Source of the DNA: Deltaproteobacteria bacterium | GTDB taxonomy: Bacteria; Desulfobacterota; Syntrophia; Syntrophales; UBA2185 | Length of the DNA stretch: 64,000 nucleotides | Direction: 5' to 3' | Assembly (NCBI GenBank): GCA_026388495.1 | Contig: JAPLJQ010000408.1 | Location: 1,939-65,938 of the forward strand | Shown here: positions 4,380 to 61,621 of the stretch, piece by piece | Numbering within the stretch: the first letter of the stretch is position 1 | Layout of the letters: the number at the start of each line of letters is the position of its first letter | Position numbers and translations under genes: made by a program | Notes under the pieces: generated by a model | Database searches by the model: none | What the model saw: the letters and a program-made list of their open reading frames with translations, nothing else | Told to the model about the DNA's origin: nothing

Positions 4380-4407
4380 TTGTGGCTTGACACGATCAAA
4401 AATTCAA

Positions 4408-8915: not shown

Positions 8916-8957
8916 GGGTTTTGCAGCCCATCATTTTGTCCACCCAAGTTGTTGAGC

Positions 8958-26276: not shown

Positions 26277-26609
26277 TTATTTTTCTTCCATTCGCATGGC
26301 AATCTGCTGCGTCAGCCTTTTTATCTGTCGGCGCTGTATGGAAATGATGATGGAGAATTGCAGGCACATCAAGAACAATATCAGGATCGAAAAAAGAAAA
26401 AGCGTCGTAATGGGTGTCGCCACGTCTATTTGCCGTGAAAACCAGAGGAGCCAGTCATACTTGACAACGATCAGCGGGGCCATGATACCAACCGACAGCC
26501 AGAGCCAACAATATGAAATGTCAAGCCTCCCTTTCTGAATCAATCTTACAATCAACAAGAATAGAGCAAGACTGATCAACAGCATAATAAAATACTGCTT
26601 AGGGTACAT
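26277..26609 (-). CDS. DUF2304 family small membrane protein
   Basis: 110 aa, 3-4 TM, charged C-terminal tail; overlaps the stop of the upstream GT2, the usual GT2-DUF2304 pairing. Confidence 0.7.
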   Translation of the reverse strand: MYPKQYFIMLLISLALFLLIVRLIQKGRLDISYCWLWLSVGIMAPLIVVKYDWLLWFSRQIDVATPITTLFLFSILILFLMCLQFSIIISIQRRQIKRLTQQIAMRMEEK

Positions 26610-37989: not shown

Positions 37990-38110
37990 CTTATCCTCCA
38001 TTTGTCACATCACAGAAATCATGTTTGTTCGCAGGGATATAAAAAAAGGCTACCTAAGAACCCCCCAAAAACAGCGACTTTCAAAATTCTTTTCCTTACT
38101 ATTTACGTTG

Positions 38111-46508: not shown

Positions 46509-46590
46509 TTTTTTCTCCCTTCAACTGCTCAGTCCCATAATGTTTACCGGTTCAATTATATTAGCCTATTGATTATCTTTGCAACGACGA

Positions 46591-48429
46591 TCATTTATAT
46601 TGCCCAGGAAGTAACGCCCTGTATAGAATATCCCAGCCCAAAACGTTTTGCAGTCTGGGAATAGGTTTGGGACTGAGATTCTTATAAATAACGAGACCGT
46701 CTTCCTCATAGAGAAGCTTATTGTTTTTGTCACTCTCCACTTTGATCAGATATTCTCGCCAAGGCGGCAGGTTTTTATCAATGTAAAGCACTTCCTTGGT
46801 CTGAATGAAATAGTATTCGACGCCTTCCGGGTGGTATCCCAAATACCATGCCTTTTGACGGTTTGTTATGTATGCCTGTATGGATGCATCAATCCGATAG
46901 GCAACAGAAGCATCATAGGGCACATATTCCCTCATTTTTGACAATATATGATTGTATTGATTATTGACTGGTGGCGCCTTGATATAATTCAGGTTTATAT
47001 TATTTAGGGACACTATCCCATTCCCCAAAACTGCCCAGGGATAGTGGTAGGAAAACCATAAATTCATGGATGCAAAACCAGAAAAAAGAAGAAAAATAAT
47101 TACTGCGGTTTTCTCTTTGAACGTCCTATCGTTCTTCTTCCCATTTACCCATGGACTCCATATGCTTGTGAGAACCATAAAAGTACTGAGATATATGGGC
47201 ACAACCATATTTGCATTTCTGTGGGACGCAACATCATAGCTTCTGAACATGCCCATCACTGCGCCGACAACAGCAAATAGAAGAACGCCAATGAGAGGCC
47301 AATTCCACTTTTTATCCCTTTTTATTCCTAATATGGGAATAAAAGCGACAGTCAGCAGCAGTAGGAATATATATACCACGTGATGTAGGGCGGCCTGGAT
47401 AAATGATGAGAAATCAAGATCGAAAAAAATCTGCCTCATTGTACCTGTGGGCTGCCTCGACAGATCCCAAATACCTCGTAGGCTTTCCCTAATGATGGCC
47501 TTATCCCACAACATAACTAAAAGACCGATAACCGACGTTATTATGCCCTGCTTGGGAGCCCTAAAGAAAATGGCGATTATCACGCCAAGTGCCATTACGG
47601 AATATGTGTAAGGCATGTTGATAATTGCCAACAGGAACACAAAAATATAAAATAACATCCATCGTCGTGAAAATAATGAAGCAAAGACATAAGGATAAAT
47701 GGCATACGATATGACGTCAAAATGACCGTGCATTAGAATGGGTCGTTCAACCCAAGGCAATAGACAGAAGCCCATTGCTGCCACAAGAGCCATCGTTTTT
47801 GATCCATCGAGAGTGCGTGCTGCTAAATATATTCCAAATGATCCACACACAAGAACCAATATGACAACGGCAAATACATGCATTGGAGGGTTAGGGTATA
47901 GCCAATAAAGGGGAGGCAGCAACAGGTATGGCAGAATGTGTGGTACCGCAGAGAATGCCGACGCATAATAGTAAGGGTTACTGTGATAAAAAAGGACGTC
48001 GTTATATTTAACGGTATTTTCAGGTCCGAGTCCATTGCATATATTGTGCAGCAACTGGGCACAGTAAGCACCATTTCCATGGTTGTAATCATAAAGATAG
48101 GGATTCAAAAAAATATCCATCCCCAGCCAACCAATGACCAGCATGACAAACACACCCAAAATTAATTCGGCATGTGATTCAATAAACATGCGCCAAGGAT
48201 TCAATCTATCAAAGATAAACCGCCACCTGACCAGTACATAGTCTTTACAAAAATAGAAGCTCCAGAAAATTATAATAAAGGTAATCGCTGCCCCGATGAA
48301 TCTTATTCTGTCTATGAGGATCCAGGGAAGGATGAGAAAAAATAGAATCAGCGAAACAAAAAACAGTAAAATTGATATTCTCAGGAGAATTTTTTTTGTC
48401 AATATTTTTTGTATATGATCATCGTCCAT
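46591..48429 (-). CDS. polytopic membrane protein with C-terminal soluble domain (GT-C-like / DUF2079-like; possible polymerase or periplasmic glycosyltransferase)
   Basis: 612 aa; at least 12 hydrophobic segments over ~470 aa, then a ~130-aa hydrophilic tail; no motif recognised with certainty. Confidence 0.6.
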   Translation of the reverse strand: MDDDHIQKILTKKILLRISILLFFVSLILFFLILPWILIDRIRFIGAAITFIIIFWSFYFCKDYVLVRWRFIFDRLNPWRMFIESHAELILGVFVMLVIGWLGMDIFLNPYLYDYNHGNGAYCAQLLHNICNGLGPENTVKYNDVLFYHSNPYYYASAFSAVPHILPYLLLPPLYWLYPNPPMHVFAVVILVLVCGSFGIYLAARTLDGSKTMALVAAMGFCLLPWVERPILMHGHFDVISYAIYPYVFASLFSRRWMLFYIFVFLLAIINMPYTYSVMALGVIIAIFFRAPKQGIITSVIGLLVMLWDKAIIRESLRGIWDLSRQPTGTMRQIFFDLDFSSFIQAALHHVVYIFLLLLTVAFIPILGIKRDKKWNWPLIGVLLFAVVGAVMGMFRSYDVASHRNANMVVPIYLSTFMVLTSIWSPWVNGKKNDRTFKEKTAVIIFLLFSGFASMNLWFSYHYPWAVLGNGIVSLNNINLNYIKAPPVNNQYNHILSKMREYVPYDASVAYRIDASIQAYITNRQKAWYLGYHPEGVEYYFIQTKEVLYIDKNLPPWREYLIKVESDKNNKLLYEEDGLVIYKNLSPKPIPRLQNVLGWDILYRALLPGQYK

Positions 48430-48441
48430 TAGATGGTTGCC

Positions 48442-49065
48442 TTAAATACTATTTTTTGAACGGCATAATACCATTGTCCAAGGAGTGGGAGTAAGTACGT
48501 CCATAATGTCAAAATATGATGATAGCAACTTTAATAAACTTTTTTTTGACCAATGTTGAACGTGACCCGGCGTATTGCCAATGCTTGATACATATTTAAA
48601 ACGAATTAAATTTAGCATTCTCCAAAGTGGTTCTCGGGGTACGCTGACAATTAGAAACGGATTAGCTAATTGTTCCAAAATAGCCATTGCATTGTTCGGT
48701 TTTTGGAGATGTTCAAGAACTTCGGAACATAAAATCAATTTTGCCGAATCGCTCGGAGTCAAATCATAAATACTGGCAATCTTAAATTTAATATCTACCT
48801 TGGCTCTTCTCGCATTTTCTGATGCAATTTTGATGATTTTTTCCGAAAAGTCGCTGGCAACAACTTTTTTATTCTGTTTTGCCAAAGCAATGCTGAGATT
48901 CCCCTCCCCACATCCAACCTCATGTATCTCAGTTACGCCAGTCTTGGAAATCAAGGTATCAAGACAATCATGAAATCCTTTCATCATATACCTTACGACA
49001 GGATTCACTGATCCATATTTATCGTATACATTACCAGCGATTATACCGTCTTCTATGATGCTCAT
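48442..49065 (-). CDS. class I SAM-dependent methyltransferase
   Basis: 207 aa; IHEVGCGEGNLSIAL motif I; LILCSEVLEHL. Confidence 0.8.
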   Translation of the reverse strand: MSIIEDGIIAGNVYDKYGSVNPVVRYMMKGFHDCLDTLISKTGVTEIHEVGCGEGNLSIALAKQNKKVVASDFSEKIIKIASENARRAKVDIKFKIASIYDLTPSDSAKLILCSEVLEHLQKPNNAMAILEQLANPFLIVSVPREPLWRMLNLIRFKYVSSIGNTPGHVQHWSKKSLLKLLSSYFDIMDVLTPTPWTMVLCRSKNSI

Positions 49066-49116
49066 TGCTTATATCCGTCTTCAATGGCAAGGATTATCTC
49101 TTGATTTTGACTCATT

Positions 49117-50112
49117 TTAGCTCGCTTGCTTCCGTGCAATAATTCGCATGTTACTTGTTGGATGAAAAGACTTAGTTAAGACATCGATAACTGTAAAAAA
49201 CATCATGCAGGTTATATTTTTGTAGTTCATACGCTTGGTAATAGAGCGTGGCAATCCTTTCTGAATGAGTAAATTCCTGAATGAACTAGTCCAAAAATTA
49301 GGGCTGGGATTGTATTCAACTTTATCAATTAAAAACCCAAATCTTTGCAATGTTTTTTGAATTGTTTTGAGATTGAAGATTAAGAGATGACGTGGAACAT
49401 GGTATCCGCCCCAATGATGATGCCTAAATAAACTTGCATCCATGCCTTCGTCTGAAGGGGTTTCTATAAAAAGTGTCCCTTTATCTTTTAGTAATTTGTG
49501 GGTTTTTCTTAGTACTCCTGTCACATCAAATAGGTGTTCTATTACTTGGTTCATTACAATAACATCGAAAAATCCTTCTTGCCAATTAACGTTTTCAAAA
49601 TTTCCTTCTATCGCTTTGAAACCTGCTTTGCGAATATCCCTGATAATGTCTGGATTGAAATCATTACCATAAAGATCAATAGGCTTTGAACTTGCATTGC
49701 GAATCAAGGACAAAAGCGCGGGGCTACCACAGCCGACATCTAATATGCTTGGAGATTCCGAAAATTTAGGAATTAATTTTAGAATTCGATGGGCTTTTTG
49801 GGATTGCATGTAATTACGAGCTTTTCTAATGATCGGGTTGCGGATATTACTGAAATGATATGCTGAATACTCTTTGGGATATATTTTTGATATCTCTGAT
49901 AATCTCGGTCGTGGGTTTAAGTATAATAGATCACATGACTGGCAGCGTACCACTGCAAATGGAATATCTGTTGTAAAATAATCGTAATCGAACGTTTTGG
50001 TAACAATAACATAAAATGACTCTCCACAACCCGGACAATTAACGTCCTCGATTTCTATGGCTCGCCTTAAATACATTGCTTGTTTTTCATCACAGAGTGA
50101 TTCGGATTTCAT
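49117..50112 (-). CDS. class I SAM-dependent methyltransferase with N-terminal zinc ribbon
   Basis: 331 aa; CPGCGESF...CQSCDL then ILDVGCGSPALL; VIVMNQVIEHL. Confidence 0.8.
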   Translation of the reverse strand: MKSESLCDEKQAMYLRRAIEIEDVNCPGCGESFYVIVTKTFDYDYFTTDIPFAVVRCQSCDLLYLNPRPRLSEISKIYPKEYSAYHFSNIRNPIIRKARNYMQSQKAHRILKLIPKFSESPSILDVGCGSPALLSLIRNASSKPIDLYGNDFNPDIIRDIRKAGFKAIEGNFENVNWQEGFFDVIVMNQVIEHLFDVTGVLRKTHKLLKDKGTLFIETPSDEGMDASLFRHHHWGGYHVPRHLLIFNLKTIQKTLQRFGFLIDKVEYNPSPNFWTSSFRNLLIQKGLPRSITKRMNYKNITCMMFFTVIDVLTKSFHPTSNMRIIARKQAS

Positions 50113-50117
50113 GGTTT

Positions 50118-51218
50118 CTATTCATTAATTCTTTCTTTATGATATGTATTCAACAAGCTTTGTATATCCGGGTCGTTATAGCTTATAGGAAGTTTCTTAC
50201 CCTTATTTATTGAGATTTCAAGATAGGAGAGAAACTTTCTATCTTCGGCCGCTAAACACACAGGGGCATATTCCGAAAATGCTTTTACCTGACATCCACG
50301 TTTCCATATTATTTCCAATGGTTCTTCCAGTATATTTCCGAAGGATATTTGAATAAAAGGACATGGCAAAACATCACCATAAGGTGATATATAAATTTTC
50401 TCTTTAAGAGCCCCGCATCCTTCAACAAGCCAATTGGTTTGAAAATCTGTTCTGACATGTGGATTCTCGCGCATGATCCAGTTTAAATATTTCCTATCTG
50501 AATCATTTAACATAATATCGTAGTTTAATTCCCACGCGCCTACCGGGACAGCTAACGCACATGTAAGTACGGAATCGCATTCTTTTGCTAGATTGATCAT
50601 GCCACGAAAAACATTTGAGCCGATGTTATGTCTGCCGATCACAACACTCATCATGGGTTTTATACCAGATTCACCTATCATTTTAACAGTTCGAAGAGAT
50701 AGTGAAAAGGCATCTTTTAATTTTCTGCTTATTTTGTCATAGTCGGAAAAATCATATTCGTTAGGGACGGGACCAAATCCTACAGTGATACTATCAACAC
50801 CGATTTTTCTCAATTTATCGAAGAGCTCTTTTGATGCAACTGTACCATTCGTCTTTATAGAGATAAAATTTTCATTGGGATCAAGATTATGGATAACCTC
50901 TTCGAGGTCTTTATAAATTAATGGTTCGCCTCCTTGAACACCGAAAGTTAAAACACCCAAGGCTGAACATTGCTTTGCTACATCCCCCCACTCAGCTGGA
51001 TTAAGCCGTCTTCTCGAATCGTCCTTTAAAGACTCACAAGAACAATGCTCACATTGCATGTTACATCCATAGTGTACAATAATGTCAGCATATCTTAATC
51101 GTGGTTTACGACTAATAATAGTTGCTGCATAGCCCTTTACCGTCCTTGCTATGAGCTTTGGTTTCGGATGGTTCATCATGTATCTGGCATTAGTTAACAA
51201 ACTTTTATACTGAATCAT
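50118..51218 (-). CDS. radical SAM protein with SPASM/twitch-like C-terminal Cys cluster
   Basis: 366 aa; HYGCNMQCEHCS (CxxxCxxC); C-terminal CGALKEKIYISPYGDVLPCPF plus further Cys. Confidence 0.85.
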   Translation of the reverse strand: MIQYKSLLTNARYMMNHPKPKLIARTVKGYAATIISRKPRLRYADIIVHYGCNMQCEHCSCESLKDDSRRRLNPAEWGDVAKQCSALGVLTFGVQGGEPLIYKDLEEVIHNLDPNENFISIKTNGTVASKELFDKLRKIGVDSITVGFGPVPNEYDFSDYDKISRKLKDAFSLSLRTVKMIGESGIKPMMSVVIGRHNIGSNVFRGMINLAKECDSVLTCALAVPVGAWELNYDIMLNDSDRKYLNWIMRENPHVRTDFQTNWLVEGCGALKEKIYISPYGDVLPCPFIQISFGNILEEPLEIIWKRGCQVKAFSEYAPVCLAAEDRKFLSYLEISINKGKKLPISYNDPDIQSLLNTYHKERINE

Positions 51219-51266
51219 TTCTTAACTTCCTGACTGAAAAAGGTAACCTCTGAAAAAGAGTTTGTA

Positions 51267-52697
51267 TCATTTGTCTGGAAATAGTGACGCCTTAATAAAT
51301 CTTACCGCACCTCTGCTTATATCTCTGAACGCTTTATAATTATTTATTCTCCGCATGTATGTCAGTATCACCTGAGGTCTCAAATAGAATGATAAATTTG
51401 CATTACGTTGAAGTTTCGCTAACTCCTTCGGATCTCTCCCTTTCGGTGTATATATGGGAAGTCCCTTAGCATAACCTGACATGAGACTGAATCGCCGCCA
51501 ATCACTCAAATCAAGCGTTCCTTCTTCTTGCGCTATATCCCATAGCTTCGTCCCAGGAAAAGGTGTAGCCAGTGCAAATCTTACCTGATTTATGCCAAGC
51601 TCTTTTGCAAACTTAATTGTGCGCATGCTTTCTTCTCTTGTTTCAGTAGGCACACCCAAAATAAAGCTCGCACGTATGTCTATACCTGCTTTTTTCGTTG
51701 TTGCTATCGTTTCTCTTATTTGTTCAATTGTAATACCTTTATCTATTTTATCTAATAATCTCTGATTACCGGACTCAAGGCCATATGATATTATCTTACA
51801 ACCAGCTTTAGCCATTAGAAAAAGAAGTTCCTCATCAACACAATCGACACGGGCTTCCGCCCACCAGGACAATTTCGTGTTAAACTTTCTGTTTAAGAAT
51901 TCCCGGCAAAGCTCTTTTGCACGTTTCTTGTTCGCTGCAAAGTTGTCGTCTTGAACAAATAATTGCGTTACATTATAGTTTTTTATCAAGTTATCCACTT
52001 CTTCACAGACGCGCTCTATACTATGTGTTCTATACTTTCCTTTTGTTAAAAGGCGATTTGCACAGAAAATACAATTATATGGGCATCCCCGGGAAGTTAG
52101 AATTACTCCTACACGATCACCGGTTCTGGTGTCCGGACTTGTTTGATAACCTTCTTTCATTAAATCTTCTGCCGCAGGTGCAGGAAAATCATCGATGTTC
52201 TGAACTAACTCCCTGGGCATTCCTCCTGAAACCCCACCCTCTCTCGCACACATAATTCCGTTCACCGTCGCAGGATCTTTTCCAAATTTTAAGGCCTGAA
52301 CGAATTCATACATCGTTATTTCGCCTTCTCCAATGGCTACGTAGTCTATCGATTTCTCCTGCAGAAAATCATGCGGTCTAATTGTTGGGTGAATCCCCCC
52401 AACAATAATAACCTTATCCGGGAATTCCTTCTTTAGTAACTTTGACAACTCGATACAACTATGAACCAGAAAGGTAACGCACGTAATTCCAATCACATCT
52501 GGATTATAAGATTTTACAACCTCCTGAATTGATTCCTTTTCTATTTGAGAATCAAATATCTTAACATCAATATTATTACTTCTTAAATAAGACGCAATAT
52601 AAGTAAGTCCTATCGGTTGAAATACAAATGCTATCTTTGAAAGCTTACCCATATATCTTTGAATTTCATATGGTGGATTAATCAGCAAGATTTTCAT
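51267..52697 (-). CDS. B12-binding domain radical SAM protein
   Basis: 476 aa; N-terminal NPDVIGITCVT cobalamin-domain-like; SRGCPYNCIFCA. Confidence 0.9.
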   Translation of the reverse strand: MKILLINPPYEIQRYMGKLSKIAFVFQPIGLTYIASYLRSNNIDVKIFDSQIEKESIQEVVKSYNPDVIGITCVTFLVHSCIELSKLLKKEFPDKVIIVGGIHPTIRPHDFLQEKSIDYVAIGEGEITMYEFVQALKFGKDPATVNGIMCAREGGVSGGMPRELVQNIDDFPAPAAEDLMKEGYQTSPDTRTGDRVGVILTSRGCPYNCIFCANRLLTKGKYRTHSIERVCEEVDNLIKNYNVTQLFVQDDNFAANKKRAKELCREFLNRKFNTKLSWWAEARVDCVDEELLFLMAKAGCKIISYGLESGNQRLLDKIDKGITIEQIRETIATTKKAGIDIRASFILGVPTETREESMRTIKFAKELGINQVRFALATPFPGTKLWDIAQEEGTLDLSDWRRFSLMSGYAKGLPIYTPKGRDPKELAKLQRNANLSFYLRPQVILTYMRRINNYKAFRDISRGAVRFIKASLFPDK

Positions 52698-52712
52698 TCT
52701 GAAAGACTTTCC

Positions 52713-53279
52713 TCACTTACTTGGAGCGATTTTACCAACGGGTTTCAAGATAAAAAGTTGATTTGTGCCAAGAAGAAATCTCTCGTATTTAGAAACGCTG
52801 ACGTCCGCTTGGGACGCGATACCATTCATGTGACTCAGATCAATTAGTTTTTCATGCTGCTCGTTGGCAAGAGCGCTGAATAATCCCATTCGTGCACCCA
52901 GGTAATGTATAATATCTGCCATCGGATGAGGTGTTGTAATGACTATCCAACCATCCGGATTCAACATAACGCTCATCCGCCTAAGTATGTCCACGGGGTT
53001 TTTTATGTGCTCGATAACCGCAAGTAAAACGATGCTATCAAAGTGTTCACCCTCGGGTATGATTGTCTCAAACCTGAATCGGGGATATTTCATCCGTGCG
53101 ATATTAATAGAAGGACCATCGATATCCACACCGATGTAGTAATTCGGCGCACAAATTTCAACCAGAGACCCAATACCGCAACCATAATCCAGAATTTTTC
53201 CCCGTAAATACGGCGAGATCTTTTTTATTCTCTGCGTGCGTAACCACGGAGATAACAAACCAATCGATTGGTCAGCCAT
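52713..53279 (-). CDS. class I SAM-dependent methyltransferase
   Basis: ILDYGCGIGSLV motif I; IVLLAVIEHI; ATG at 53279 (the track start at 53294 is GTG). Confidence 0.8.
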   Translation of the reverse strand: MADQSIGLLSPWLRTQRIKKISPYLRGKILDYGCGIGSLVEICAPNYYIGVDIDGPSINIARMKYPRFRFETIIPEGEHFDSIVLLAVIEHIKNPVDILRRMSVMLNPDGWIVITTPHPMADIIHYLGARMGLFSALANEQHEKLIDLSHMNGIASQADVSVSKYERFLLGTNQLFILKPVGKIAPSK

Positions 53280-53336
53280 TGTACGATATCTCACCCAACT
53301 TGTTTTTTTCGAACTTCATGTTCCTTAAGAGATAGA

Positions 53337-54311
53337 TTATTCCCCCTTATAGTATCCGGTTTTTCTTAATCGATACTGGATGTCTTCCATCAACTTTCTG
53401 TTTACGGAGAGAAGATCGGCCAGAAATGCCACAAGTATAGTCTGAAAACCAATCCCGATCAGTATGGAGGCCAAAATAAGAGATTGGACATGTGCCGCAA
53501 TATCAGAACCTGTGACAAAGTGATAGATTAAATAATATAAGTATCTAAGTCCTATTAATAGACCAATTGAGAACGATACCAAACCAATGGTCATGAAAAA
53601 GCGAAAGGGTTGATAAACTACAAATATTCTGATGATAGTGAGTATTGAACGTTTCAAATATGCAGGGATGCTTTTTATCAGCCTCGAAGGCCGCAAATAC
53701 TTATTCGTTCTAATAGGCACCGATGTCACGGTCATATTTTTCTGGCCTGCTTGAATGATGGTTTCCAGTGTGTATGTGTATTCGTTAAAAACATTAAGAT
53801 GCATCGCAGCATCTCTACTTATGGCCCTAAATCCACTTGGAGCATCGGCAACATCCGTTTTGCTTACCAGCCTGACCACATAACTTCCAAATTTTTGAAG
53901 AATTCTTTTCATCGCGGAAAAATGCTTAACCTCATTTATAGGCCTGGCACCGATAACTATATCGGCTTTGCCTTCCAATATCGGTTTTACAAGTTTAGAA
54001 ATATCTCTAGCTTCATATTGATTGTCAGCATCTGTGTTCACAATGACATCAGCACCAAGCTTTAGGCATGTTTCCAGACCGACCATGAAAGCTGTTGCCA
54101 ATCCCTTATTTTTCGATAAACTTACCACATGATTCACACCGGAATTCTTGGCTACTGTTACTGTGTCATCGGTACAGCCATCATTAATAATCAACCATTC
54201 AACCGAATTAAATCCTTCTACCTCGCGCGGAAGCTCGCCGAGTGTTAGACTGATTGTTTCAGCCTCATTGTAACACGGTATTTGAATAATTAACTTCAAT
54301 GGTCCCTCCAT
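53337..54311 (-). CDS. GT2 polyprenyl-phosphate glycosyltransferase-like (ArnC/GtrB architecture)
   Basis: 324 aa; LIIQIPCYNEAETI, IINDGCTDDT, NTDADNQY; two C-terminal TM helices (FFMTIGLVSFSIGLLIGL, SLILASILIGIGFQTILVAFLADLL). Confidence 0.85.
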   Translation of the reverse strand: MEGPLKLIIQIPCYNEAETISLTLGELPREVEGFNSVEWLIINDGCTDDTVTVAKNSGVNHVVSLSKNKGLATAFMVGLETCLKLGADVIVNTDADNQYEARDISKLVKPILEGKADIVIGARPINEVKHFSAMKRILQKFGSYVVRLVSKTDVADAPSGFRAISRDAAMHLNVFNEYTYTLETIIQAGQKNMTVTSVPIRTNKYLRPSRLIKSIPAYLKRSILTIIRIFVVYQPFRFFMTIGLVSFSIGLLIGLRYLYYLIYHFVTGSDIAAHVQSLILASILIGIGFQTILVAFLADLLSVNRKLMEDIQYRLRKTGYYKGE

Positions 54312-54332: not shown

Positions 54333-55940
54333 TTAGCACCTGCCATGAGATATAGCAGTCAGCCGATTACGGATTATCTGCACCAATAATTGCACATCGT
54401 TGCGTCTCAAGCCCAATATCTCCGGCTTAAAGTATACTGACGCAATAACTATCATCGTATATGTAATACCAGATAAAATAAAATCATATAACCCACCATC
54501 TACCAATAAATAATTCGCAGCAAGCGATGACATTGCAGCAAGACTCGTAAAAAAAAGGAGACATCCGATCTGGTGCACCAGATAATACAAATAGCTGAGA
54601 TGGAGCAATTTTGCATTAAAGTATAATTGCACATTGACAGCTACGACATTTATTACAAGCATTTTGATTGCCAATCCAGTGGCGCCGGCATTTAAACCAT
54701 ACTTATCAACGGGAGCGATCATGAAATAGGTAATAGGCAGGCTAACCAGCGAAAAGATTACGGAGATGTTCCTATATAGTTTGGTTCGCCCCGCGGCGTA
54801 AAAGAGAGAACTCGTCAATTGTCCGTACGTCTGATGAATAGGGTACATCGCCATGATGGCAACGGCCATCATGCTTCCCCGAAAGGGACTGCCCCCGATG
54901 ATGCGCACGACATTCTGCGCCTGAACCATGACGAAGCACGAAAAAAACGCAGCTACAGCATACAACATAGGGATATAACGATTAAAAAGCCGCCCCATTT
55001 CGTTCAGGTCGTTAGTGCCATGAAGGATTGAATATTCTCTCATCAACAGTGGCGTCATGGCACCGGTAAAAAGAAAACAGATGGCTCCTATCTGATAGGA
55101 TAGGCTGTAAAAGCCCTGTTGTACACTTCCTCCGTAGTATTGCAACAACCATCTGTCAAATATACCCTCTACTAATACGACTATAGCAATAACAAAGATC
55201 GGATGGCTATAATTAAAAAAATCCTTCAGGTAATTTTTTGCTTTTTCCCATGATAGCCTCAGGTTCTCTTTGGATAAGTGGATGTTTCTGCTGATTATTC
55301 CTATGAACGCAATTATTAGAAAAAAAAGGATAAAATAATGATAGAAAAAGAATTGGGTTAGGTAAAACTGATGGTATAAATAAAGTATAACAATAACCCC
55401 AAGGCCTAAAATCCTCTGAAGCATTCGCACCTTTTCTGCAGGTACCGTTATGCCATAAGCATCCGCAATATCTCCTAATATCTGAACAAACCAATTGAGA
55501 AGTCCCCAGCCTGCCGCCAGATAAACATAAACCAGACTCTGCCCCAGCCAGATCGTTTCATGTACACCAGAGAAATGTACTAACGCTACGAAACCAATAA
55601 CGAAAAGAAAAACAAAAGCGATATAATACAAATAAAAAGAGATTAAAGGGTATTCTCTGGGGCGGCGCGAAATGTTCGTATAGAAACAGGTGGAGGTTCC
55701 CATATCTAAAAAACCGACGACCTGGGTAAAAAAATTAGTAAGGAAATTAAAATCCCCATACACCTTGGGACCCAATCCCCGCGGAATTATCATTTGTGTG
55801 ATAATACTGATGATAAGACCGAGAAAACTGGAGTAAAGTTTAAAAAAATATCTTTTATTAAGAGAATCATTGTGTCCGAGGTTCCGATGAATATCGGGAT
55901 TATCGAAATTGCTGTCTTCGCCTTTACCGATAAACGTCAT
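54333..55940 (-). CDS. Wzx-like polysaccharide flippase (MOP superfamily)
   Basis: 535 aa, about 14 TM; N-terminal KLYSSFLGLIISIITQMIIPRGLGPKVYGDFNF typical of the polysaccharide biosynthesis protein family. Confidence 0.75.
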   Translation of the reverse strand: MTFIGKGEDSNFDNPDIHRNLGHNDSLNKRYFFKLYSSFLGLIISIITQMIIPRGLGPKVYGDFNFLTNFFTQVVGFLDMGTSTCFYTNISRRPREYPLISFYLYYIAFVFLFVIGFVALVHFSGVHETIWLGQSLVYVYLAAGWGLLNWFVQILGDIADAYGITVPAEKVRMLQRILGLGVIVILYLYHQFYLTQFFFYHYFILFFLIIAFIGIISRNIHLSKENLRLSWEKAKNYLKDFFNYSHPIFVIAIVVLVEGIFDRWLLQYYGGSVQQGFYSLSYQIGAICFLFTGAMTPLLMREYSILHGTNDLNEMGRLFNRYIPMLYAVAAFFSCFVMVQAQNVVRIIGGSPFRGSMMAVAIMAMYPIHQTYGQLTSSLFYAAGRTKLYRNISVIFSLVSLPITYFMIAPVDKYGLNAGATGLAIKMLVINVVAVNVQLYFNAKLLHLSYLYYLVHQIGCLLFFTSLAAMSSLAANYLLVDGGLYDFILSGITYTMIVIASVYFKPEILGLRRNDVQLLVQIIRNRLTAISHGRC

Positions 55941-57124
55941 TTAATATTTTTTATCCTGTTTGCCAGGATTTGCCAGGATTGTAATTCTTCCGTGCCATCT
56001 TTCTTAATATAGTCGTTTCTGTAAGCACGATATTTTTTTACATCCACATACAATTCTTTTTGCAGATTAAACTCAAAGTGATAATCTAGATTATGGACCT
56101 TTTTCCCGAAAAATCCTGCCATCCAGTCAGGCGTCGGATCTTCTGCCCAGCCTTCATTATATTTATCTGTCGTAACGATAATAATAGGTTTTTCATACAG
56201 AACAGCAAAATTGACGGCCGTACTCGTATGCAAAATCACAAAACCAGACGTTCTCACTAACTCCGATGTCTTACCACGTATGACAGGCCTGCCACCAAAA
56301 TAGTCAGGAAGGTCTTCATAGCGGGAACGTGGATGCGCGGCAATGAAGATTTTGAATCTGTTCTTACTTTCAAGATAATCGAAGAATCTGCAAAGCTTCG
56401 GATAATATTCATCCGGGGTTACAGGTGTACTGAGTCCACTGTAAGCATAGTCGGGATGAAAAGGAAGATATTCGTCAATAAAAACTCCCGTATTGATATC
56501 AACGGGTCCCAGCTTATCTGCTTCCGTTAAATAAGTATCGTAATCGTAACTATGCGCCCATACAACATTCGAGGTCGCCGTTACAGCCAATCCCGGCGTC
56601 CCGTATTTCTCGCCGCGAGCTAATATATAATCGGCAGGTTTCACATTTAACATTTGATATGGAATTAAATATAATATGCTATTTATCAAGCCACTCAAAT
56701 TCAATTGTTTAAACTTATTAGAAATACTCTCTGAAAACACAACCTTCGAACGGTCAACTCTCGGAAGTGCCATCGCATCAACAGAATATTTAATATTTTG
56801 CTTGGAAAACATTCTGTGAATACTGAGGGAGTAAAAAGCGTAATGAATTAAAGATACAACGAAGCAGGTATCGTCCAACCTCGCAACTGCAGTGATCGCT
56901 TCTTTTTTGGTTTGGAATAAGCGCCAGTTGTCACAATTGAAGACCGGCGGCTTCACTGTGCTTTTATATTCACCCGAAGCAATAAAAGGCGTAAAGTCCC
57001 ATACCTCAACGTCAAATCCATTATCCTTAAAAGTTTTGACACCAAATCGTCGATAGTCGCTTTCGTTGAAATATGCCTCGACGAAATAGACAATCTTGCT
57101 AATGGGGAATGATTTATTAATCAT
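55937..57124 (-). CDS. hypothetical protein, putative GT-B-like transferase with HP motif
   Basis: 395 aa from MINKSFPISKIVYF; C-terminal IFIAAHPRSRYED...TSELVRTSGFVILHTSTAVNFAVLYEKPIIIVT parallels the C-terminus of the 38111-39901 product. Confidence 0.5.
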   Translation of the reverse strand: MINKSFPISKIVYFVEAYFNESDYRRFGVKTFKDNGFDVEVWDFTPFIASGEYKSTVKPPVFNCDNWRLFQTKKEAITAVARLDDTCFVVSLIHYAFYSLSIHRMFSKQNIKYSVDAMALPRVDRSKVVFSESISNKFKQLNLSGLINSILYLIPYQMLNVKPADYILARGEKYGTPGLAVTATSNVVWAHSYDYDTYLTEADKLGPVDINTGVFIDEYLPFHPDYAYSGLSTPVTPDEYYPKLCRFFDYLESKNRFKIFIAAHPRSRYEDLPDYFGGRPVIRGKTSELVRTSGFVILHTSTAVNFAVLYEKPIIIVTTDKYNEGWAEDPTPDWMAGFFGKKVHNLDYHFEFNLQKELYVDVKKYRAYRNDYIKKDGTEELQSWQILANRIKNIK

Positions 57125-58343
57125 TAACCCCATCCATATTGACCGTATGGCGTAATTTCCAATCACCATTCACCCTGGCCCAGAGATGGGGCGAGCGGCC
57201 CTGATCGCAGAGTTCAATGAATCTCTCCGGCTTAATATCTAGGTAGTTTAAAATTTCTACGAAATACCGGTCGGGAAATTCTCCATCGAATTTTTTAACG
57301 AGGGCGCATCCCTCTTCTCTTGTCAAATGATTGTTCCGTATTTCCATGGAAGCATCTTCAGTCGTTCTTCCGATGCCAAATTTGATAAAGGTTGTATAGT
57401 AATGGAGGTCGTCAATTTTATCATCGATACTATTGTACTTGCTGTATGTACCCTGGGTCCGGAACGGCCTTGCCTGATACCCTGTATTTTCAACCGCGTA
57501 ATAGTAGGCCTCCTGAGGCGTCCATTTTAGATAATATCCGAGGTAATGAACATCGATGCTGTGCTTTTCCAGTTCCTCGTAACGCGGTGGCAGGAATACC
57601 ATTAAATCTACCAGATCGATATTATACTTTTCAATCAGATGTGGAATGGAGACACCGCCGAGGAAAACGTCATTCAGATCTCTTATGCTGAAAAAAGATT
57701 TATCTCTAAGGGATGTGGTATTATCAGCAATGGGGTTCCCGTATTCAGCCTCATTTTCTCCATAGAAAATTAATGGGATATCGTATTTTATAGCAATCTT
57801 TGGTGCAATGTTCTTCTGTCCCAGAATAAAGGTATGGAAAGGATGTAGAAGGTTTTCAATCGATAGTTTGGTCATAAGCTTCATAACCCTGCCATTGGGC
57901 TTAAATGAAATGTTGTCAACCCCCCCCACTTCGATCCAGTTGCGGAAGTTACTATAACCATAATCGGTATAAAGAAGAGGTGACCAAGTGACTGTCAAAG
58001 GATGCATGCCATATTTATATTTCAGTACATGTGCTGCATAAGCGCTGTCCTTTCCGCCGCTTCCCGGGACGACACAGTCATAATTTCCGTCATTTTTCCT
58101 GTGTTTATCCAACAGTCTAATCAATTCGCCTTCTCTTTTTTTCCAGTCGATCTTATCCTTAATTTCGGCAAAACGGCATGCATCACAGATACCTTCTTCA
58201 TCAATGTGCATGGTGGTTTTTTTGCTGGCTTGCGTATGCTTGAACTCGACCGTGGAAGCAGGCCTCTGGTTGGAGGTAACGCAACGACCGCAGAATACTA
58301 CTCTCTCAGGCAATCCGTATTTTGCTTCCAATTTTTCTTTCAT
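57117..58343 (-). CDS. N-acetyl sugar amidotransferase (WbuX/PseA/PtmG/WbpG class, PP-loop ATPase)
   Basis: 408 aa; N-terminal Cys4 (CGRC...CDAC); PP-loop VVPGSGGKDS; KWTPQEAYYYAVENTGY; NHLTREEG. Confidence 0.85.
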   Translation of the reverse strand: MKEKLEAKYGLPERVVFCGRCVTSNQRPASTVEFKHTQASKKTTMHIDEEGICDACRFAEIKDKIDWKKREGELIRLLDKHRKNDGNYDCVVPGSGGKDSAYAAHVLKYKYGMHPLTVTWSPLLYTDYGYSNFRNWIEVGGVDNISFKPNGRVMKLMTKLSIENLLHPFHTFILGQKNIAPKIAIKYDIPLIFYGENEAEYGNPIADNTTSLRDKSFFSIRDLNDVFLGGVSIPHLIEKYNIDLVDLMVFLPPRYEELEKHSIDVHYLGYYLKWTPQEAYYYAVENTGYQARPFRTQGTYSKYNSIDDKIDDLHYYTTFIKFGIGRTTEDASMEIRNNHLTREEGCALVKKFDGEFPDRYFVEILNYLDIKPERFIELCDQGRSPHLWARVNGDWKLRHTVNMDGVND

Positions 58344-59003
58344 CTATAGATTTTCTCCGTTTTGTTTTTTTATTGATAAAGCCCAATTTCTGTAAATATT
58401 CAAACCTTTCATCCCGCTTTTTTCAGGGTGATATTGTGCTGCAAATACATTATTTCTAAGCAGGCTCGAACAATACTCTGTGGAATGGTATTTCGTATGA
58501 GACAAGACAACCTTTATATCCGATGGTTCAACATAATATGAATGGATAAAATACATGAACTCCCCACTTTTCAAACCTCTTAATGGAGATGCCGTCCATG
58601 AATCTTCTGAAGCAGGAAAAATCTGGTTCCAGCCTATCTGGGGGACTTTAATACGAATATCGGTATGACCTTGAAATTTTTTCACTGTACCCTCAATAAC
58701 GTTTAATCCCTTGTGCCTTCCGAACTCTTCGCTTTCGCTCAAAAGAAGCTGCATGCCGAGACAGATCCCCATGAATTTTCGGCCACTGGCGATAAAATCC
58801 TTGATTGGTTCGATCAGATCAAGAATCCGTAAATTCACCATCGCTTCCCCAAAAGCGCCGACACCAGGCAGTATCATTGCACCCGCACATAGAAGTTGTT
58901 TTTTATCGGACGTAATTATCGCATTCAGGCCAACCGAACAGCAGGCATGATGAACACTAAAGAGGTTGCACATACCATAATCGACAATCGCAACTGTCTT
59001 CAT
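58344..59003 (-). CDS. HisH-like glutamine amidotransferase subunit (WbuY-like)
   Basis: MKTVAIVDYGMCNLFSV; nucleophile elbow GICLGMQLL; QYHPEKS (His/Glu of the triad). Confidence 0.9.
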   Translation of the reverse strand: MKTVAIVDYGMCNLFSVHHACCSVGLNAIITSDKKQLLCAGAMILPGVGAFGEAMVNLRILDLIEPIKDFIASGRKFMGICLGMQLLLSESEEFGRHKGLNVIEGTVKKFQGHTDIRIKVPQIGWNQIFPASEDSWTASPLRGLKSGEFMYFIHSYYVEPSDIKVVLSHTKYHSTEYCSSLLRNNVFAAQYHPEKSGMKGLNIYRNWALSIKKQNGENL

Positions 59004-59013
59004 CTGTATGTCT

Positions 59014-59874
59014 TTATTCAAAGTCATACCGGCAAGATATACCATTACTATTCAAATAGTCTTTTATTATCTTTAGATTTAAAGCATTTACGACATTATA
59101 CCTTTTCCCGCTCTTCAGAAATTCAACATTCCCCTCTTCACCGGATTCGACCTTAACAGGGTTGTGTTTAATGAAGTCGTAGTGCAGTATACTGGAAACA
59201 GCAACGGCATCGGCTTCACCCTCAAGAATTACCTGCTTCAGGTGTTCGAGATTACCGGCGCCTCCATGAGCGATCACCGGAATGGAAACCATTCTAGAGA
59301 TCGCCTGCGTCAGCTCGATATCGAATCCGAGACCGGTGCCTTCACAGTCCACGGATGTGATAACGATTTCTCCCGCACCGAGCTCTTCAACTTTTTTTGC
59401 CCATTCCGCAACATTTACACCGGTATGCTGGCGTCCATTATCAATATACGCGAGATAAGATCCATCCGGTTGCTTGATGGCCTCGATTGTGACGACGATA
59501 GTTGATGAACCGAAAACTCTCGATGCTTCTCTTATGATCTGCGGATTTTTTATAGCGGCAGTATTTAGAGAAACCTTATCTGCTCCAGCCTTCAAGACGC
59601 TCTTGATATCATCGATCGTCCTCAATCCACCTCCAACGGTAAGGGGGATGAATATTTCTCTTGCCGTAAGGGATATAATGTCATGAAGGCTATTTCTATC
59701 ATACAGACTGGCAACAACATCCATATACATTAATTCATCAGCCCCTGCTTCATAGTAATAACGAGCAAATTGTTCCGGCCTTCCCAGCACTCTAAGGCCT
59801 TCGAGATGGATACCTTTAACCAAGTTTGGCCCTTTAATGTCTAAACGAGGAATTATGCGAATATTTTGTTGCAT
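59014..59874 (-). CDS. HisF-like cyclase/synthase subunit (WbuZ-like)
   Basis: 286 aa; IIPRLDIKG, GADKVSLNTAA, VIAHGGAG; TIM-barrel HisF pattern with a C-terminal extension. Confidence 0.9.
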   Translation of the reverse strand: MQQNIRIIPRLDIKGPNLVKGIHLEGLRVLGRPEQFARYYYEAGADELMYMDVVASLYDRNSLHDIISLTAREIFIPLTVGGGLRTIDDIKSVLKAGADKVSLNTAAIKNPQIIREASRVFGSSTIVVTIEAIKQPDGSYLAYIDNGRQHTGVNVAEWAKKVEELGAGEIVITSVDCEGTGLGFDIELTQAISRMVSIPVIAHGGAGNLEHLKQVILEGEADAVAVSSILHYDFIKHNPVKVESGEEGNVEFLKSGKRYNVVNALNLKIIKDYLNSNGISCRYDFE

Positions 59875-59902
59875 ATTGGATGATTAAAAGGGAAGGGGGC
59901 CA

Positions 59903-61291
59903 TCAGGTTTGCCTGAACCCCCTGAAGCTGCTGTCTCTTTCCAAGTATAACCGCTTCATTTGCTCTTCATATGACGAAAACTTTCTTTTCAAATAGTTTT
60001 GCAGGAGAATGGAATTTGCCTCAAAAAGACACTGGTGCACATCATCATCAGTAATGTCTGTGAAATTAATCGATATCAAGTCGGAGTTGATGTGTTTTGT
60101 TTCATAGAAATCTTCACAATCTTTCAACAAACCTCTTTCGATTGCATAATAATACAGGGGTGATCCGGGATAAGGCGTAACCGGACGAATGGTGCGCAGA
60201 TGTGTCCCATCATCGTATTTCAGCAGAAAATCGACTCCTTTTTTTAAGATTTCTTTATCTTCTCCTATATTTCCGAAAATGATATTGTATCCGGGACTGA
60301 TACCGGCAGTGATCGTCTCCTCAATTCCGCGAATAATTTGTTTGGTTGTCAATGCCTTATTCATGTTCTTCAATATTCGATCATCAAGTGATTCGATACC
60401 GTAGTTAATAAAAACGCACCCGGCCTGTTTCATCAAGTGAAGTACATTTTTTCGCGCGTAATTCAGTCTTCCATTGCAATCCCATTTAATACTTATTTTA
60501 TGCCTGATAAAATCATTGCAAAGGCTGATGGTCCTTTCCTTAGAAGACATAAGGAGTTCATCGCCAAATGTGATATGGGTGATACCATAATCCAACTTTA
60601 GGAGTTTGATTTCTTCAATAATGCTATCATTGCTTCGAGGGCGGAAACCTTCATCCATCCGGTAACAGAAGTTACATCTGAACGTACAGCCTCTACCCGA
60701 AAGCATTGGCATAACAAAATCAGAATTTGTACAGTGTGGCATTCGAAAGAGTCGATAATAATTAATGGGGAATAATTCGTAAGCGGGGAGCGGGATGGTG
60801 TCTATGTCTTCGATTAATGGCCGGCGCTCATTTATTATGCACCGCTCGCCTTCTCTATAAGAAATACCTTTAACTTGATCCAGGCTACGCCTGCTTTTCA
60901 ATGCCTCCAGCAATTCAATAACCGTAACTTCTCCTTCTCCCATTACGATCGCATCTGCACCGGTCTTCTTGAGGAAATATTCTGGTTCAGGTGTTGGACC
61001 GTGGCCACCGATAAGGTAAAAGGGTCGTTCTTTTGAGTGATTGATCGCTTCAGATATCTGAAGTGCCTTATGATATTGATAGTACCCTCCTATAAAGCTT
61101 AGGCCGACAATATCAAAAAAATTTTTATCAAGATAGTTTTTTAAGTGGCTTTCGGGATAATGGTGCACATCCTGATTGTAAATCTCAACATCGTATCCTT
61201 CTTTTCGGAGAATCGCAGCGATATAAGCCAATCCCTGCGGAAACCAATGGATGTAAGAATCATTATCATAGACTATTAGCAATACCTTCAT
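59903..61291 (-). CDS. B12-binding domain radical SAM protein
   Basis: 462 aa; N-terminal FDIVGLSFIGG cobalamin-domain-like; SGRGCTFRCNFC. Confidence 0.9.
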   Translation of the reverse strand: MKVLLIVYDNDSYIHWFPQGLAYIAAILRKEGYDVEIYNQDVHHYPESHLKNYLDKNFFDIVGLSFIGGYYQYHKALQISEAINHSKERPFYLIGGHGPTPEPEYFLKKTGADAIVMGEGEVTVIELLEALKSRRSLDQVKGISYREGERCIINERRPLIEDIDTIPLPAYELFPINYYRLFRMPHCTNSDFVMPMLSGRGCTFRCNFCYRMDEGFRPRSNDSIIEEIKLLKLDYGITHITFGDELLMSSKERTISLCNDFIRHKISIKWDCNGRLNYARKNVLHLMKQAGCVFINYGIESLDDRILKNMNKALTTKQIIRGIEETITAGISPGYNIIFGNIGEDKEILKKGVDFLLKYDDGTHLRTIRPVTPYPGSPLYYYAIERGLLKDCEDFYETKHINSDLISINFTDITDDDVHQCLFEANSILLQNYLKRKFSSYEEQMKRLYLERDSSFRGFRQT

Positions 61292-61348
61292 TTTGAAACC
61301 TATTTAGGAAACGATAAATTTTCAGAAGGAGGATTCCTTACTGTTTTT

Positions 61349-61597
61349 TTACTTGAATATCTGATTAAATCGGAACCTGCATCGTATGAATTTATCGATA
61401 TTCTTTTCAGGAATGATTAGTTTCATTTCAATGATTTCATCAGAATCACAATTTGGGCAATGCTCTTCGTGGCAAAGACAAATCTCCTGACATACTGAGC
61501 AAACACGGTAGATCCCTTGTTGGGAGATCATCGGTGAACTTTTTAATATTTTTATCCTGAATTTTCTTTCTCTTTCTATCCAATCATCATAATTCAT
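61349..61597 (-). CDS. small Cys/His-rich (zinc-ribbon-like) hypothetical protein
   Basis: 82 aa; CSVCQEICLCHEEHCPNCDSDE; wedged between an amidotransferase and a B12-radical SAM gene. Confidence 0.45.
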   Translation of the reverse strand: MNYDDWIERERKFRIKILKSSPMISQQGIYRVCSVCQEICLCHEEHCPNCDSDEIIEMKLIIPEKNIDKFIRCRFRFNQIFK

Positions 61598-61621
61598 TTG
61601 AGAATTCAGAATAATGGGTAT

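Follow-up and report, generated by a model that had tools for sequence, protein, structure and literature searches.

The stretch analyzed here is a 64,000-nt window of contig JAPLJQ010000408.1 from a deltaproteobacterial genome assembly, and the subject of this report is a seven-gene cassette on its minus strand (46591-54311). Read along that strand, the cassette encodes a predicted polyprenyl-phosphate glycosyltransferase of the GtrB/ArnC/AglJ or dolichyl-phosphate mannose synthase (DPMS) type (GT2; 324 aa, 53337-54311), a small class I S-adenosylmethionine (SAM) methyltransferase (MTa; 188 aa, 52713-53279), a cobalamin-type (class B) B12-binding radical SAM enzyme (B12-rSAM) of what we call type A (rSAM A; 476 aa, 51267-52697), a twitch-like radical SAM enzyme with a partial SPASM domain (366 aa, 50118-51218), a Zn-ribbon class I SAM methyltransferase (MTb; 331 aa, 49117-50112), a further small class I SAM methyltransferase (MTc; 207 aa, 48442-49065), and a membrane protein with a predicted GT-C fold, which is a divergent relative of DUF2079 proteins (612 aa, 46591-48429). 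A mechanical list of the open reading frames (ORFs) in the window confirmed the seven consecutive genes at the positions given in a preliminary description of this DNA. The gaps between them are 5, 12, 15, 48, 51, and 42-57 nt, the last depending on the MTa start codon, GTG 53294 or ATG 53279. On identical metagenome contigs, gene callers take the ATG, which gives the 188-aa protein and raises the upper bound of the gaps from the 51 nt described earlier to 57 nt. The translations contain the motifs NTDADNQY, SRGCPYNCIFC, HYGCNMQCEHC, and CGALKEKIYISPYGDVLPCPF, together with a CPGCG...CQSCD Zn ribbon. Hydropathy analysis found no transmembrane (TM) segments in the five enzymes encoded between the GT2 and the 612-aa protein.

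The GT2 matches Pfam Glycos_transf_2 (2.3e-19). Among NCBIfam profiles it matches AglJ (9.5e-33), PgfS, and ArnC over their full length and PpgS over the GT-A domain only, with residues 8-309 aligning to positions 3-291 of the 293 positions of the AglJ profile. Orthology to a characterized enzyme, which would have given a clue to the donor sugar, was not found in NCBIfam, where all equivalog scores lie far under the cut-offs (114 against 325 bits for AglJ, 73 against 370 for PpgS, and 28.9 against 529 for ArnC). The closest sequences in the PDB are Pyrococcus furiosus DPMS (5mlz) and ArnC (9hwj); the DADNQ motif aligns with DADLQ in both, and the D-P-x-SGF segment is aligned as well. Hydrophobic segments were found at residues 237-255 and 271-301, in agreement with the C-terminal TM helices described earlier. 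As judged by these matches, the protein is a polyprenyl-phosphate glycosyltransferase of the DPMS/ArnC/AglJ type. A long processive synthase is ruled out by its length of 324 aa, its C-terminal TM helices, and its DPMS/ArnC-type matches. Orthologues with 62-92% identity are present in eight other loci. The window encodes another polyprenyl-phosphate sugar synthase, this one of the GacI/GacJ type, on the minus strand at 26277-27333, where the gene for a 244-aa GT2 (DGDGQH, DPTSGF; 31% identical to the cassette GT2) is followed by that for a 110-aa DUF2304 protein with three TM segments (7.3e-20); GacJ is itself a DUF2304 protein (10.1101/180810). The pair lies 0.9 kb upstream of the third B12-rSAM gene of the window (23960-25381), and the pairing of a GT2 with a B12-rSAM may thus recur within the window.

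The 612-aa protein has about 11 TM segments by hydropathy and finds no match at all in Pfam, Wzy_C included. An AlphaFold2 (AF2) model built on an alignment of 21 homologues had a predicted local distance difference test score (pLDDT) of 74.8 and a predicted template modeling score (pTM) of 0.82. The top nine Foldseek matches of this model in the PDB were all GT-C proteins: AftD, PglB (three entries), STT3 (two entries, yeast and canine), AftA, PimE, and chain U of 8imx, a GT-C-fold subunit in a glycosylphosphatidylinositol transamidase entry. Their probabilities were 0.97-1.0 and their query TM-scores (TMq) 0.26-0.41. Wzy, WaaL, and SEDS structures were absent among the top 50 matches. The model therefore gives the protein a GT-C fold, as proposed earlier, and it would act as a glycosyltransferase. 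Identity as a Wzy polymerase or O-antigen ligase was rejected, there being neither a Wzy_C match nor such a fold in the top 50. Pfam DUF2079, which we take to be a member of the GT-C clan, is reached by 4 of the 21 homologues (best 1.1e-09), and literature searches on DUF2079/PF09852 returned no described function. The family is very small: among 1.84 billion cluster representatives, a profile search retrieved 73 proteins with E<=1e-3 and 29 with E<=1e-30, and only five GTDB species genomes carry a member, all of them metagenome-assembled genomes (MAGs; Pseudomonadota, "delta proteobacterium," Syntrophaceae, Omnitrophota, and Thioalkalispiraceae).

Residue E137 (in the sequence GPE) in the first periplasmic loop is invariant in the 21 homologues, and E228 and D238 are invariant or nearly so. 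Strong conservation extends to the C-terminal soluble domain of about 125 aa, including A510, N523, R524, and W528. The first-loop motif at residues 116-121 reads GD(A/G) in the wider DUF2079-like family and GNGAY in all close homologues linked to a cassette; the homologues P0026, P0027, and P0032 retain the Asp. The change to Asn119 may reflect an altered catalytic or metal-binding arrangement.

rSAM A contains Pfam B12-binding (5.9e-25, 87.9 bits) and Radical_SAM (4.8e-24, 85.8 bits) domains, in keeping with the earlier assignment, and CPYNCIFC provides its CxxxCxxC site. The best NCBIfam match is BchE (211 bits, cut-off 481), followed by HpnJ (200 bits, cut-off 578); AprD4 gives 134 bits (cut-off 500). 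The score is under the cut-off for every named family among the best 25 of the 41 NCBIfam families matched, and far under it for BchE, HpnJ, and HpnR. The B12-rSAMs of type B (below) and of loci L006 and L011 are likewise under all named-family cut-offs. Neither radical SAM enzyme of the cassette attains a named-family cut-off, and by sequence they are not orthologous to radical SAM enzymes with non-glycan substrates. The closest solved structure by sequence is that of AprD4 (6fd2, 4.9e-33). Orthologues of rSAM A with 65-73% identity were found in loci L008, L016, L019, L028, and L032, and one with 62% identity in L033 (P0183, 685 bits). Hopanoid, bacteriochlorophyll, and phosphonate pathways were rejected on the low scores and because the Pfam-scanned ORFs of the window gave no Shc, Bch, or phosphoenolpyruvate mutase match. 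Three different B12-rSAM genes are present in the one glycan locus (23960-25381, 51267-52697, and 59903-61291, all on the minus strand), and all three products score under every named-family cut-off. The two that lie outside the cassette also have orthologues beside cassettes in other loci, B12rSAM_2 in L005 and L028 and B12rSAM_3 in L016.

The second radical SAM enzyme had been described as SPASM-like. Pfam finds both Radical_SAM (6.6e-18) and SPASM (8.8e-08; 32.8 bits, cut-off 21.5) domains, but the full seven-cysteine SPASM motif is not present. The only invariant cysteines are C52, C56, and C59 of the CX3CX2C site and C268, C286, and C321 in the C-terminal part, and the sequence thus marks the protein as twitch-like rather than full SPASM. 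Its AF2 model (pLDDT 88) has an N-terminal extension of about 40 aa forming two helices, and no domain of the size of a recognition element (RRE) for ribosomally synthesized and post-translationally modified peptides (RiPPs) was seen at the N terminus. Foldseek matches to the model were SkfB, SuiB, PqqE, BlsE, viperin, MoaA, and DesII. Because these neighbors mix peptide-acting enzymes (SkfB, SuiB, and PqqE) with small-molecule enzymes (BlsE, MoaA, viperin, and DesII), they give no substrate class. There is no RiPP-type precursor or peptide-pathway gene among the scanned ORFs of the window, which, together with the missing RRE domain, fits a small-molecule substrate. RiPP maturation was rejected on the same two grounds.

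Pfam Methyltransf_23 was found in three cassette proteins, among them MTa (2.2e-18) and MTb (4.3e-21), the CPGCG...CQSCD ribbon of the latter being N-terminal. MTc matches Methyltransf_25/31. The earlier count of three SAM methyltransferases, one with a Zn ribbon, is borne out. PDB sequence searches with the three proteins returned only generic structural-genomics methyltransferases, and by sequence all three are generic class I enzymes.

Related loci were gathered from the neighborhoods of membrane-protein homologues and from genome and metagenome scans, and 11 distinct loci had enough upstream sequence for comparison. A B12-rSAM gene and at least one methyltransferase gene lie directly upstream of the GT-C gene in all 11. 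The GT2 gene is kept in nine: in eight as an orthologue of 62-92% identity, and in P0030 as a 320-aa GT2 recognized by Pfam architecture only. The gene set recurs upstream in every sufficiently long locus with a 44-87% identical membrane-protein homologue, and the arrangement is far beyond chance. Membrane-protein relatives at about 30% identity do not have the cassette genes nearby. The flanking genes differ. CMP-sugar and amidotransferase genes flank the cassette in the window, L006, and L028; dTDP-rhamnose genes flank it in P0030, L008, L015, and L016; and other genes do so in L005 and L009.

Two variants of the cassette were distinguished. In variant A (the window, P0030, L008, L016, L019, and L028) the order is GT2, MTa in some loci, rSAM A, the twitch-like radical SAM enzyme, MTb, in some loci MTc or MTa, and GT-C. 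In variant B (L005, L009, and L015) it is GT2, MTa, a type B B12-rSAM (rSAM B), MTc, and GT-C. Contigs of the same lengths (37785, 36365, and 33366) recur among the matches of three protein searches and hint at further variant A loci. An MTb orthologue adjoins the twitch-like enzyme in every variant A locus; both are absent from variant B loci, and in L006, a divergent locus, MTb is represented only by a weak 292-aa relative. Both variants, as well as L032, contain MTa orthologues. MTc is an optional member, found in the window, L005, L009, L015, L019, L032, and P0030 and not in L008, L016, or L028.

The frame proteins GT2, MTa, and GT-C do not group by variant. The window (variant A) and L005 (variant B) are 90% identical in the GT2, 81% in MTa, and 74% in the GT-C protein, and 32% identical in the B12-rSAM. 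The corresponding values for L008 (variant A) and L015 (variant B) are 92, 94, 87, and 34%, and type A and type B enzymes share only 32-34% identity in general. Comparison of the window with L005 by blastn showed sharp breakpoints at 52674/52673 and 49091/49092. The DNA on either side of the block 49092-52673 is 80-83% identical, and in place of this block, which holds rSAM A as its first gene, the accessory twitch-like enzyme as its second, and the accessory MTb as its third, L005 has 1.3 kb coding for rSAM B (L005 positions 7998-9339). Between L008 and L015 the flanks are 91-94% identical at the nucleotide level, and the equivalent 3.7 kb is replaced by 2.2 kb. The tailoring block has therefore been exchanged twice independently within a fixed frame. 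Rather than a fixed set of seven genes, the cassette consists of a frame (GT2, MTa, and GT-C) that encloses an exchangeable tailoring block; the five-gene core proposed earlier does co-occur elsewhere, but not as a fixed set. Viral contigs contained no copy of the cassette, and hence nothing points to phage-borne seroconversion.

rSAM A also occurs with a GtrB-like GT2 where the cassette GT-C is missing. L032, from a Planctomycetes MAG, has genes for an unrelated 8-TM protein, rSAM A, a GT2 orthologue, MTc, and MTa; the 8-TM protein has no Pfam match and a probability of only 0.13% against the GT-C family in hhalign. L033 has a GT2 with C-terminal TM segments, rSAM A, a PF03706 flippase-like protein, and a methyltransferase. 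The type A enzyme therefore follows the GT2, not the GT-C protein. A more distant relative of the theme in another metagenome (L030, 3867-11657) encodes a weakly PMT_2-like 604-aa membrane protein, a PF03706 flippase-like protein, two GT2s, a twitch-like radical SAM enzyme 38% identical to that of the window, and a B12-rSAM, and adjoins fatty-acid desaturase and amine-oxidase-like genes. At the other end of the cassette, a promoter-like site on the minus strand (46555-46584, TTGCAA-18-TATAAT, 10/12) lies in the 82-nt gap past the GT-C gene. Homology to L005 stops at the GT-C gene (window position 46595), which together with this site fits a cassette boundary; the counts in a promoter and terminator scan of the window were near the shuffle expectation.

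The preliminary description had named three outcomes that would speak against its interpretation: that the core genes never co-occur elsewhere, that the membrane protein is a Wzy or ligase and the GT2 a processive synthase, or that the radical SAM proteins are orthologues of enzymes such as BchE or HpnP. What was found is co-occurrence in other loci, a model that matches GT-C proteins, a 324-aa DPMS/ArnC-type GT2, and radical SAM scores far below the family cut-offs. The interpretation is thus partly upheld, with its core definition and its SPASM label corrected.

On balance we lean, though only slightly, toward reading the cassette as a periplasmic glycan decoration system of the three-component type, in which a lipid-linked sugar donor is tailored in the cytoplasm before export. 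Homology and topology suggest that the GT2 would move a sugar from a housekeeping nucleotide sugar onto undecaprenyl (polyprenyl) phosphate at the cytoplasmic face; the lack of a constant nucleotide-sugar synthesis gene in the cassette fits such a start. The soluble cytoplasmic enzymes would then modify the sugar, most parsimoniously while it is bound to the lipid. A cytoplasmic site is expected because radical SAM enzymes and methyltransferases need SAM and reductant and the GT-C protein would act outside. The lipid-linked stage is favored because the GT2 is 90-92% identical across different blocks, and only the GT-C protein would need to tolerate both products. MTa, and MTc where present, may add O- or N-methyl groups. 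The target of the cobalamin-type radical SAM enzyme would be an unactivated carbon, which by default we suppose to be C-methylated; a non-methylating reaction like those of BchE, HpnJ, or AprD4 is the alternative. In variant A the twitch-like enzyme and MTb might add an oxidation, epimerization, or dehydration followed by methylation. A flippase would carry the donor to the periplasmic face, where the GT-C protein would hand the tailored sugar to an acceptor glycan of the 58-kb locus that surrounds the cassette (below). Exchange of the middle block (rSAM A, the twitch-like enzyme, and MTb for rSAM B) would change the decoration with GT2, MTa, and GT-C constant and could thereby diversify the surface glycan. 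In this scheme the kind of chemistry and the point at which tailoring takes place are conjectural, as are the sugar and the acceptor. In a more specific form, which we offer tentatively as possible rather than probable, the radical SAM enzymes act directly on the undecaprenyl phosphate-bound sugar to give C-methylated or rearranged residues, which the GT-C protein attaches to surface glycans, and allelic exchange of the radical SAM block varies the surface antigen.

Candidates for the flippase are a Wzx-like protein in the window and PF03706 flippase-like proteins in L005 and L033. The former, a Wzx/MOP-like polytopic protein encoded directly upstream of the GT2 gene (54333-55940, minus strand), has a weak match to Polysacc_synt (4e-4), a match to Wzx_EPS (1.4e-09), and nine TM segments. 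It could serve to flip either the lipid-linked donor or the repeat units of the locus. Its membership of the cassette is uncertain, and the gene is kept beside the GT2 only in the closely related L005. A TIGR00374/PF03706 flippase-like gene lies inside the L005 cassette and occurs also in L033. No GtrA-like small protein is encoded in the cassette, and no flippase gene adjoins the cassette in L008, L009, or L016.

Several observations weigh against this picture of lipid-linked tailoring followed by GT-C transfer. No flippase is constant in the cassette. The GT-C proteins of the cassette clade have Asn119 in place of the canonical Asp in the first periplasmic loop. The best matches of rSAM A, namely BchE, HpnJ, and AprD4, are not methylases. 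The cassette hosts are all uncultured anaerobes represented by MAGs, and the mechanism rests entirely on comparative genomics. Others bear on the stage at which tailoring occurs. In the cultured Geobacter sp. AOG2 (GCA_019972295.1, locus L031), a homologue of rSAM A with 48% identity is encoded at the head of an O-antigen locus, in the company of dTDP-sugar genes and one for a TylC3-like C-methyltransferase and with no adjacent GtrB-like or other polyprenyl-phosphate GT2, so the rSAM A lineage can work without such a GT2. Inside the L011 cassette lies a gene assigned by eye from its translation as a DegT-type sugar aminotransferase; since nucleotide sugars are the substrates of such enzymes, some steps might precede the GT2. 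A nucleotidyltransferase gene (CTP_transf_3 or RmlA-like) often follows the GT-C gene directly, and the sugar-acting radical SAM enzymes GenK and GenD1 (cobalamin-dependent) and AprD4 (not so) use soluble substrates. These points favor a rather unlikely alternative within the same three-component system, in which the radical SAM enzymes and methyltransferases tailor a nucleotide sugar before loading and the GT2 and GT-C proteins carry the pre-modified sugar. Both would then have to accept two sugars, even though the GT2 hardly differs across unrelated blocks; no nucleotide-sugar synthesis gene is constant in the cassette; and rSAM A repeatedly adjoins a polyprenyl-phosphate-type GT2, in three different architectures.

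The tailoring genes could also be independent of the GT2 and GT-C proteins, merely co-located with a plain Gtr-like pair and modifying other building blocks of the locus, such as CMP-activated nonulosonic-acid-like sugars or an undecaprenyl diphosphate-linked repeat unit. Outside the cassette the window has two more B12-rSAM genes (59903-61291 and 23960-25381), seven more genes with methyltransferase domains, and three CTP_transf_3 genes; radical SAM genes generally abound in related glycan loci from anaerobes (L029 and L030); and the swap breakpoints fit an independent inserted block equally well. We nevertheless judge this improbable, since the tailoring genes lie between GT2 and GT-C in every locus whichever pathway flanks them (CMP-sugar or dTDP-rhamnose), rSAM A retains its GT2 partner where the GT-C family differs or is absent, and MTa belongs to the conserved frame with GT2 and GT-C. 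The membrane protein raises a different doubt. In the cassette clade the canonical Asp of the first-loop GD motif has given way to Asn (GN, Asn119), and E137 is the sole invariant acid of that loop; the window protein has no Pfam match; the TM-scores to GT-C structures reach just 0.26-0.41; and the distant SPASM relative in L030 lies beside the desaturase and amine-oxidase-like genes. If the 612-aa protein were not a glycosyltransferase but a polymerase, ligase, transporter, or inactive GT-C protein, the product would be a modified glycolipid or other lipid. This we regard as very improbable in view of the nine GT-C proteins that head its structural matches, with no Wzy, WaaL, or SEDS structure in the top 50, of the invariant or nearly invariant E137, E228, and D238, and of the surroundings of the cassette, which in all cases are polysaccharide loci (GT4s, Rml genes, Wzx, Wzm/Wzt).

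The bracket of a polyprenyl-phosphate GT2 and a GT-C protein follows a well known logic. It resembles the O-antigen-glucosylating Gtr systems of Shigella and Salmonella (GtrA/GtrB/GtrX) and GacI/J/K/L, in which the GT2 makes a monosaccharide-phosphate-undecaprenol donor, a flippase exports it, and a GT-C enzyme adds the sugar outside the cytoplasm to a polysaccharide that is already complete. The Gac system adds N-acetylglucosamine side chains in Streptococcus pyogenes with GacK as a Wzx-type flippase (10.1101/180810). In contrast to the cassette, which has five SAM-dependent enzymes between the GT2 and the GT-C protein, the Gtr and Gac systems lack tailoring enzymes. The cassette in turn lacks GtrA, and its GT-C protein belongs to a tiny DUF2079-related family and not to the Gtr or GacL families. 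The Haloferax volcanii Agl system (AglJ, AglD/AglR/AglS, and AglP) is also similar, in that a dolichyl-phosphate hexose synthase, a flippase-associated protein, and a dolichyl-phosphate-mannose-dependent transferase add the last sugar outside and the pathway includes a SAM methyltransferase, AglP (PMC3871713); among named families, the window GT2 matches AglJ best. However, the Agl system carries out archaeal protein N-glycosylation and has no radical SAM enzymes.

Modification of a polyprenyl phosphate-bound sugar before GT-C transfer has precedents in the aminoarabinose pathway of lipid A, ArnC/ArnD/ArnE-F/ArnT (deformylation), and in DprE1/E2 (epimerization). ArnD and DprE1/E2, the latter in the mycobacterial epimerization of decaprenylphosphoryl-ribose (DPR) to decaprenylphosphoryl-arabinose (DPA), tailor lipid-linked sugars. 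The window GT2 matches the ArnC profile over its full length, with a low score, and ArnC structures over the GT-A domain. The tailoring in the Arn and Dpr systems is nevertheless hydrolytic or redox, not radical SAM chemistry or methylation, and the acceptor is lipid A or arabinan. In Citrobacter youngae O1/O2 a cytoplasmic epimerase, ORF13, alters undecaprenyl-phosphate ribofuranose and so sets the side-chain identity (PMC11127046). The locus is of the ATP-binding cassette transporter type, as in the window. It has a MOP/MATE flippase, to which the Wzx/MOP-like candidate of the window may correspond, and a GT-C protein with a C-terminal extracytoplasmic (binding) domain, which the C-terminal soluble domain of the 612-aa protein may parallel; the auxiliary gene varies between serotypes (PMC11127046). 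It differs in its phosphoribosyltransferase donor synthase, its short-chain dehydrogenase/reductase epimerase as the auxiliary enzyme, and its GT136-family GT-C (PMC11127046).

Radical SAM action at unactivated sugar positions is shared with the gentamicin C-methylases GenK and GenD1 and with the apramycin diol dehydratase AprD4, an enzyme that does not use cobalamin; the substrates of these enzymes are, in contrast, soluble pseudo-oligosaccharides of antibiotic pathways. HpnI/HpnK/HpnJ offer the parallel of a GT2 that loads a hexosamine on a lipid and a B12-domain radical SAM enzyme, HpnJ, proposed to remodel the lipid-bound sugar (PMC13459092). That lipid is bacteriohopanetetrol, however, there is no GT-C or export step, and rSAM A scores too low to be orthologous to HpnJ. 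Among its scanned ORFs the window has no hopanoid genes.

As the preliminary description had suggested, the literature searched contained no polyprenyl-phosphate GT2/GT-C pair with radical SAM and methyltransferase tailoring. To our knowledge, auxiliary chemistry on lipid-linked monosaccharide donors is limited to deformylation and epimerization. With its radical SAM enzymes and up to three methyltransferases between donor synthase and GT-C, the cassette would extend donor tailoring to unactivated carbons and would assign a function to several unassigned radical SAM clades. The clades are widespread in anaerobes, with more than 1,900 database relatives of the twitch-like enzyme and more than 4,400 of the B12-rSAM. 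Should the more specific form of our reading hold, a lipid-linked glycosyl donor would for the first time be seen to undergo radical chemistry, and cell envelopes would have a new source of C-branched sugars. Periplasmic glycan decoration via lipid-linked monosaccharides is a major source of antigenic diversity, and allelic exchange of the radical SAM block would then be a mechanism of surface-antigen variation in anaerobic bacteria. The natural swap of blocks in near-identical cassettes offers a ready-made comparison of block A with block B and parts for glycoengineering.

The left end of the window is core genome with LigA and DsbC and 60-63% G+C. One glycan locus on the minus strand spans at least 58 kb, from 5377 to the window end, with 36-53% G+C (36-44% in the right half), and the change in composition between 1-5300 and 5377-64000 is sharp. 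The long plus-strand ORF at 1522-3207, which matches no family and overlaps the oppositely oriented ligA, is probably spurious. The glycan locus encodes Wzm/Wzt with a Wzt_C domain, FnlABC-like proteins, GT4 and GT2 enzymes, a carbamoyltransferase, and an acyltransferase. Downstream of the cassette are CTP_transf_3 genes and genes for a HisC-like aminotransferase, a GFO/IDH oxidoreductase, and several methyltransferases. Upstream, beyond the Wzx-like gene, are genes for two WbuX amidotransferases, HisH/HisF homologues, the second B12-rSAM, and a PseF-like cytidylyltransferase. The window holds no Rfam family and no tRNA.

Within the upstream part, 57117-62782 (minus strand) forms an acetamidino-sugar module of two WbuX-family N-acetyl sugar amidotransferase paralogues (346 and 350 bits, cut-off 203), HisH/HisF-like proteins, and a B12-rSAM, and adjoins the PseF-like cytidylyltransferase gene at 62863-63552. 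Between the WbuX and Wzx-like genes, 55937-57169 (minus strand) encodes a soluble 395-410-aa protein with no Pfam or NCBIfam match and no TM segment, which is conserved in L005 (627 bits) and has two tandem paralogues in L028. Downstream of the cassette, the gene at 36241-38001 (minus strand) encodes a CTP_transf_3 cytidylyltransferase fused to a D-2-hydroxyacid (phosphoglycerate-type) dehydrogenase, and separate 2-Hacid_dh genes accompany the cassettes of P0030, L008, and L009. A RelE-family toxin gene (81 aa, 2.8e-36) and an HTH_3 antitoxin-like gene (105 aa) lie inside the glycan locus at 25533-26217 (minus strand), between the GacI/J-like pair and the B12-rSAM gene at 23960-25381. A small SxtJ-family protein with three TM segments (1.5e-07) is encoded at 14000-14365 (minus strand), directly downstream of the carbamoyltransferase gene (14533-16401), an order that mirrors the SxtI/SxtJ pairing of saxitoxin clusters.

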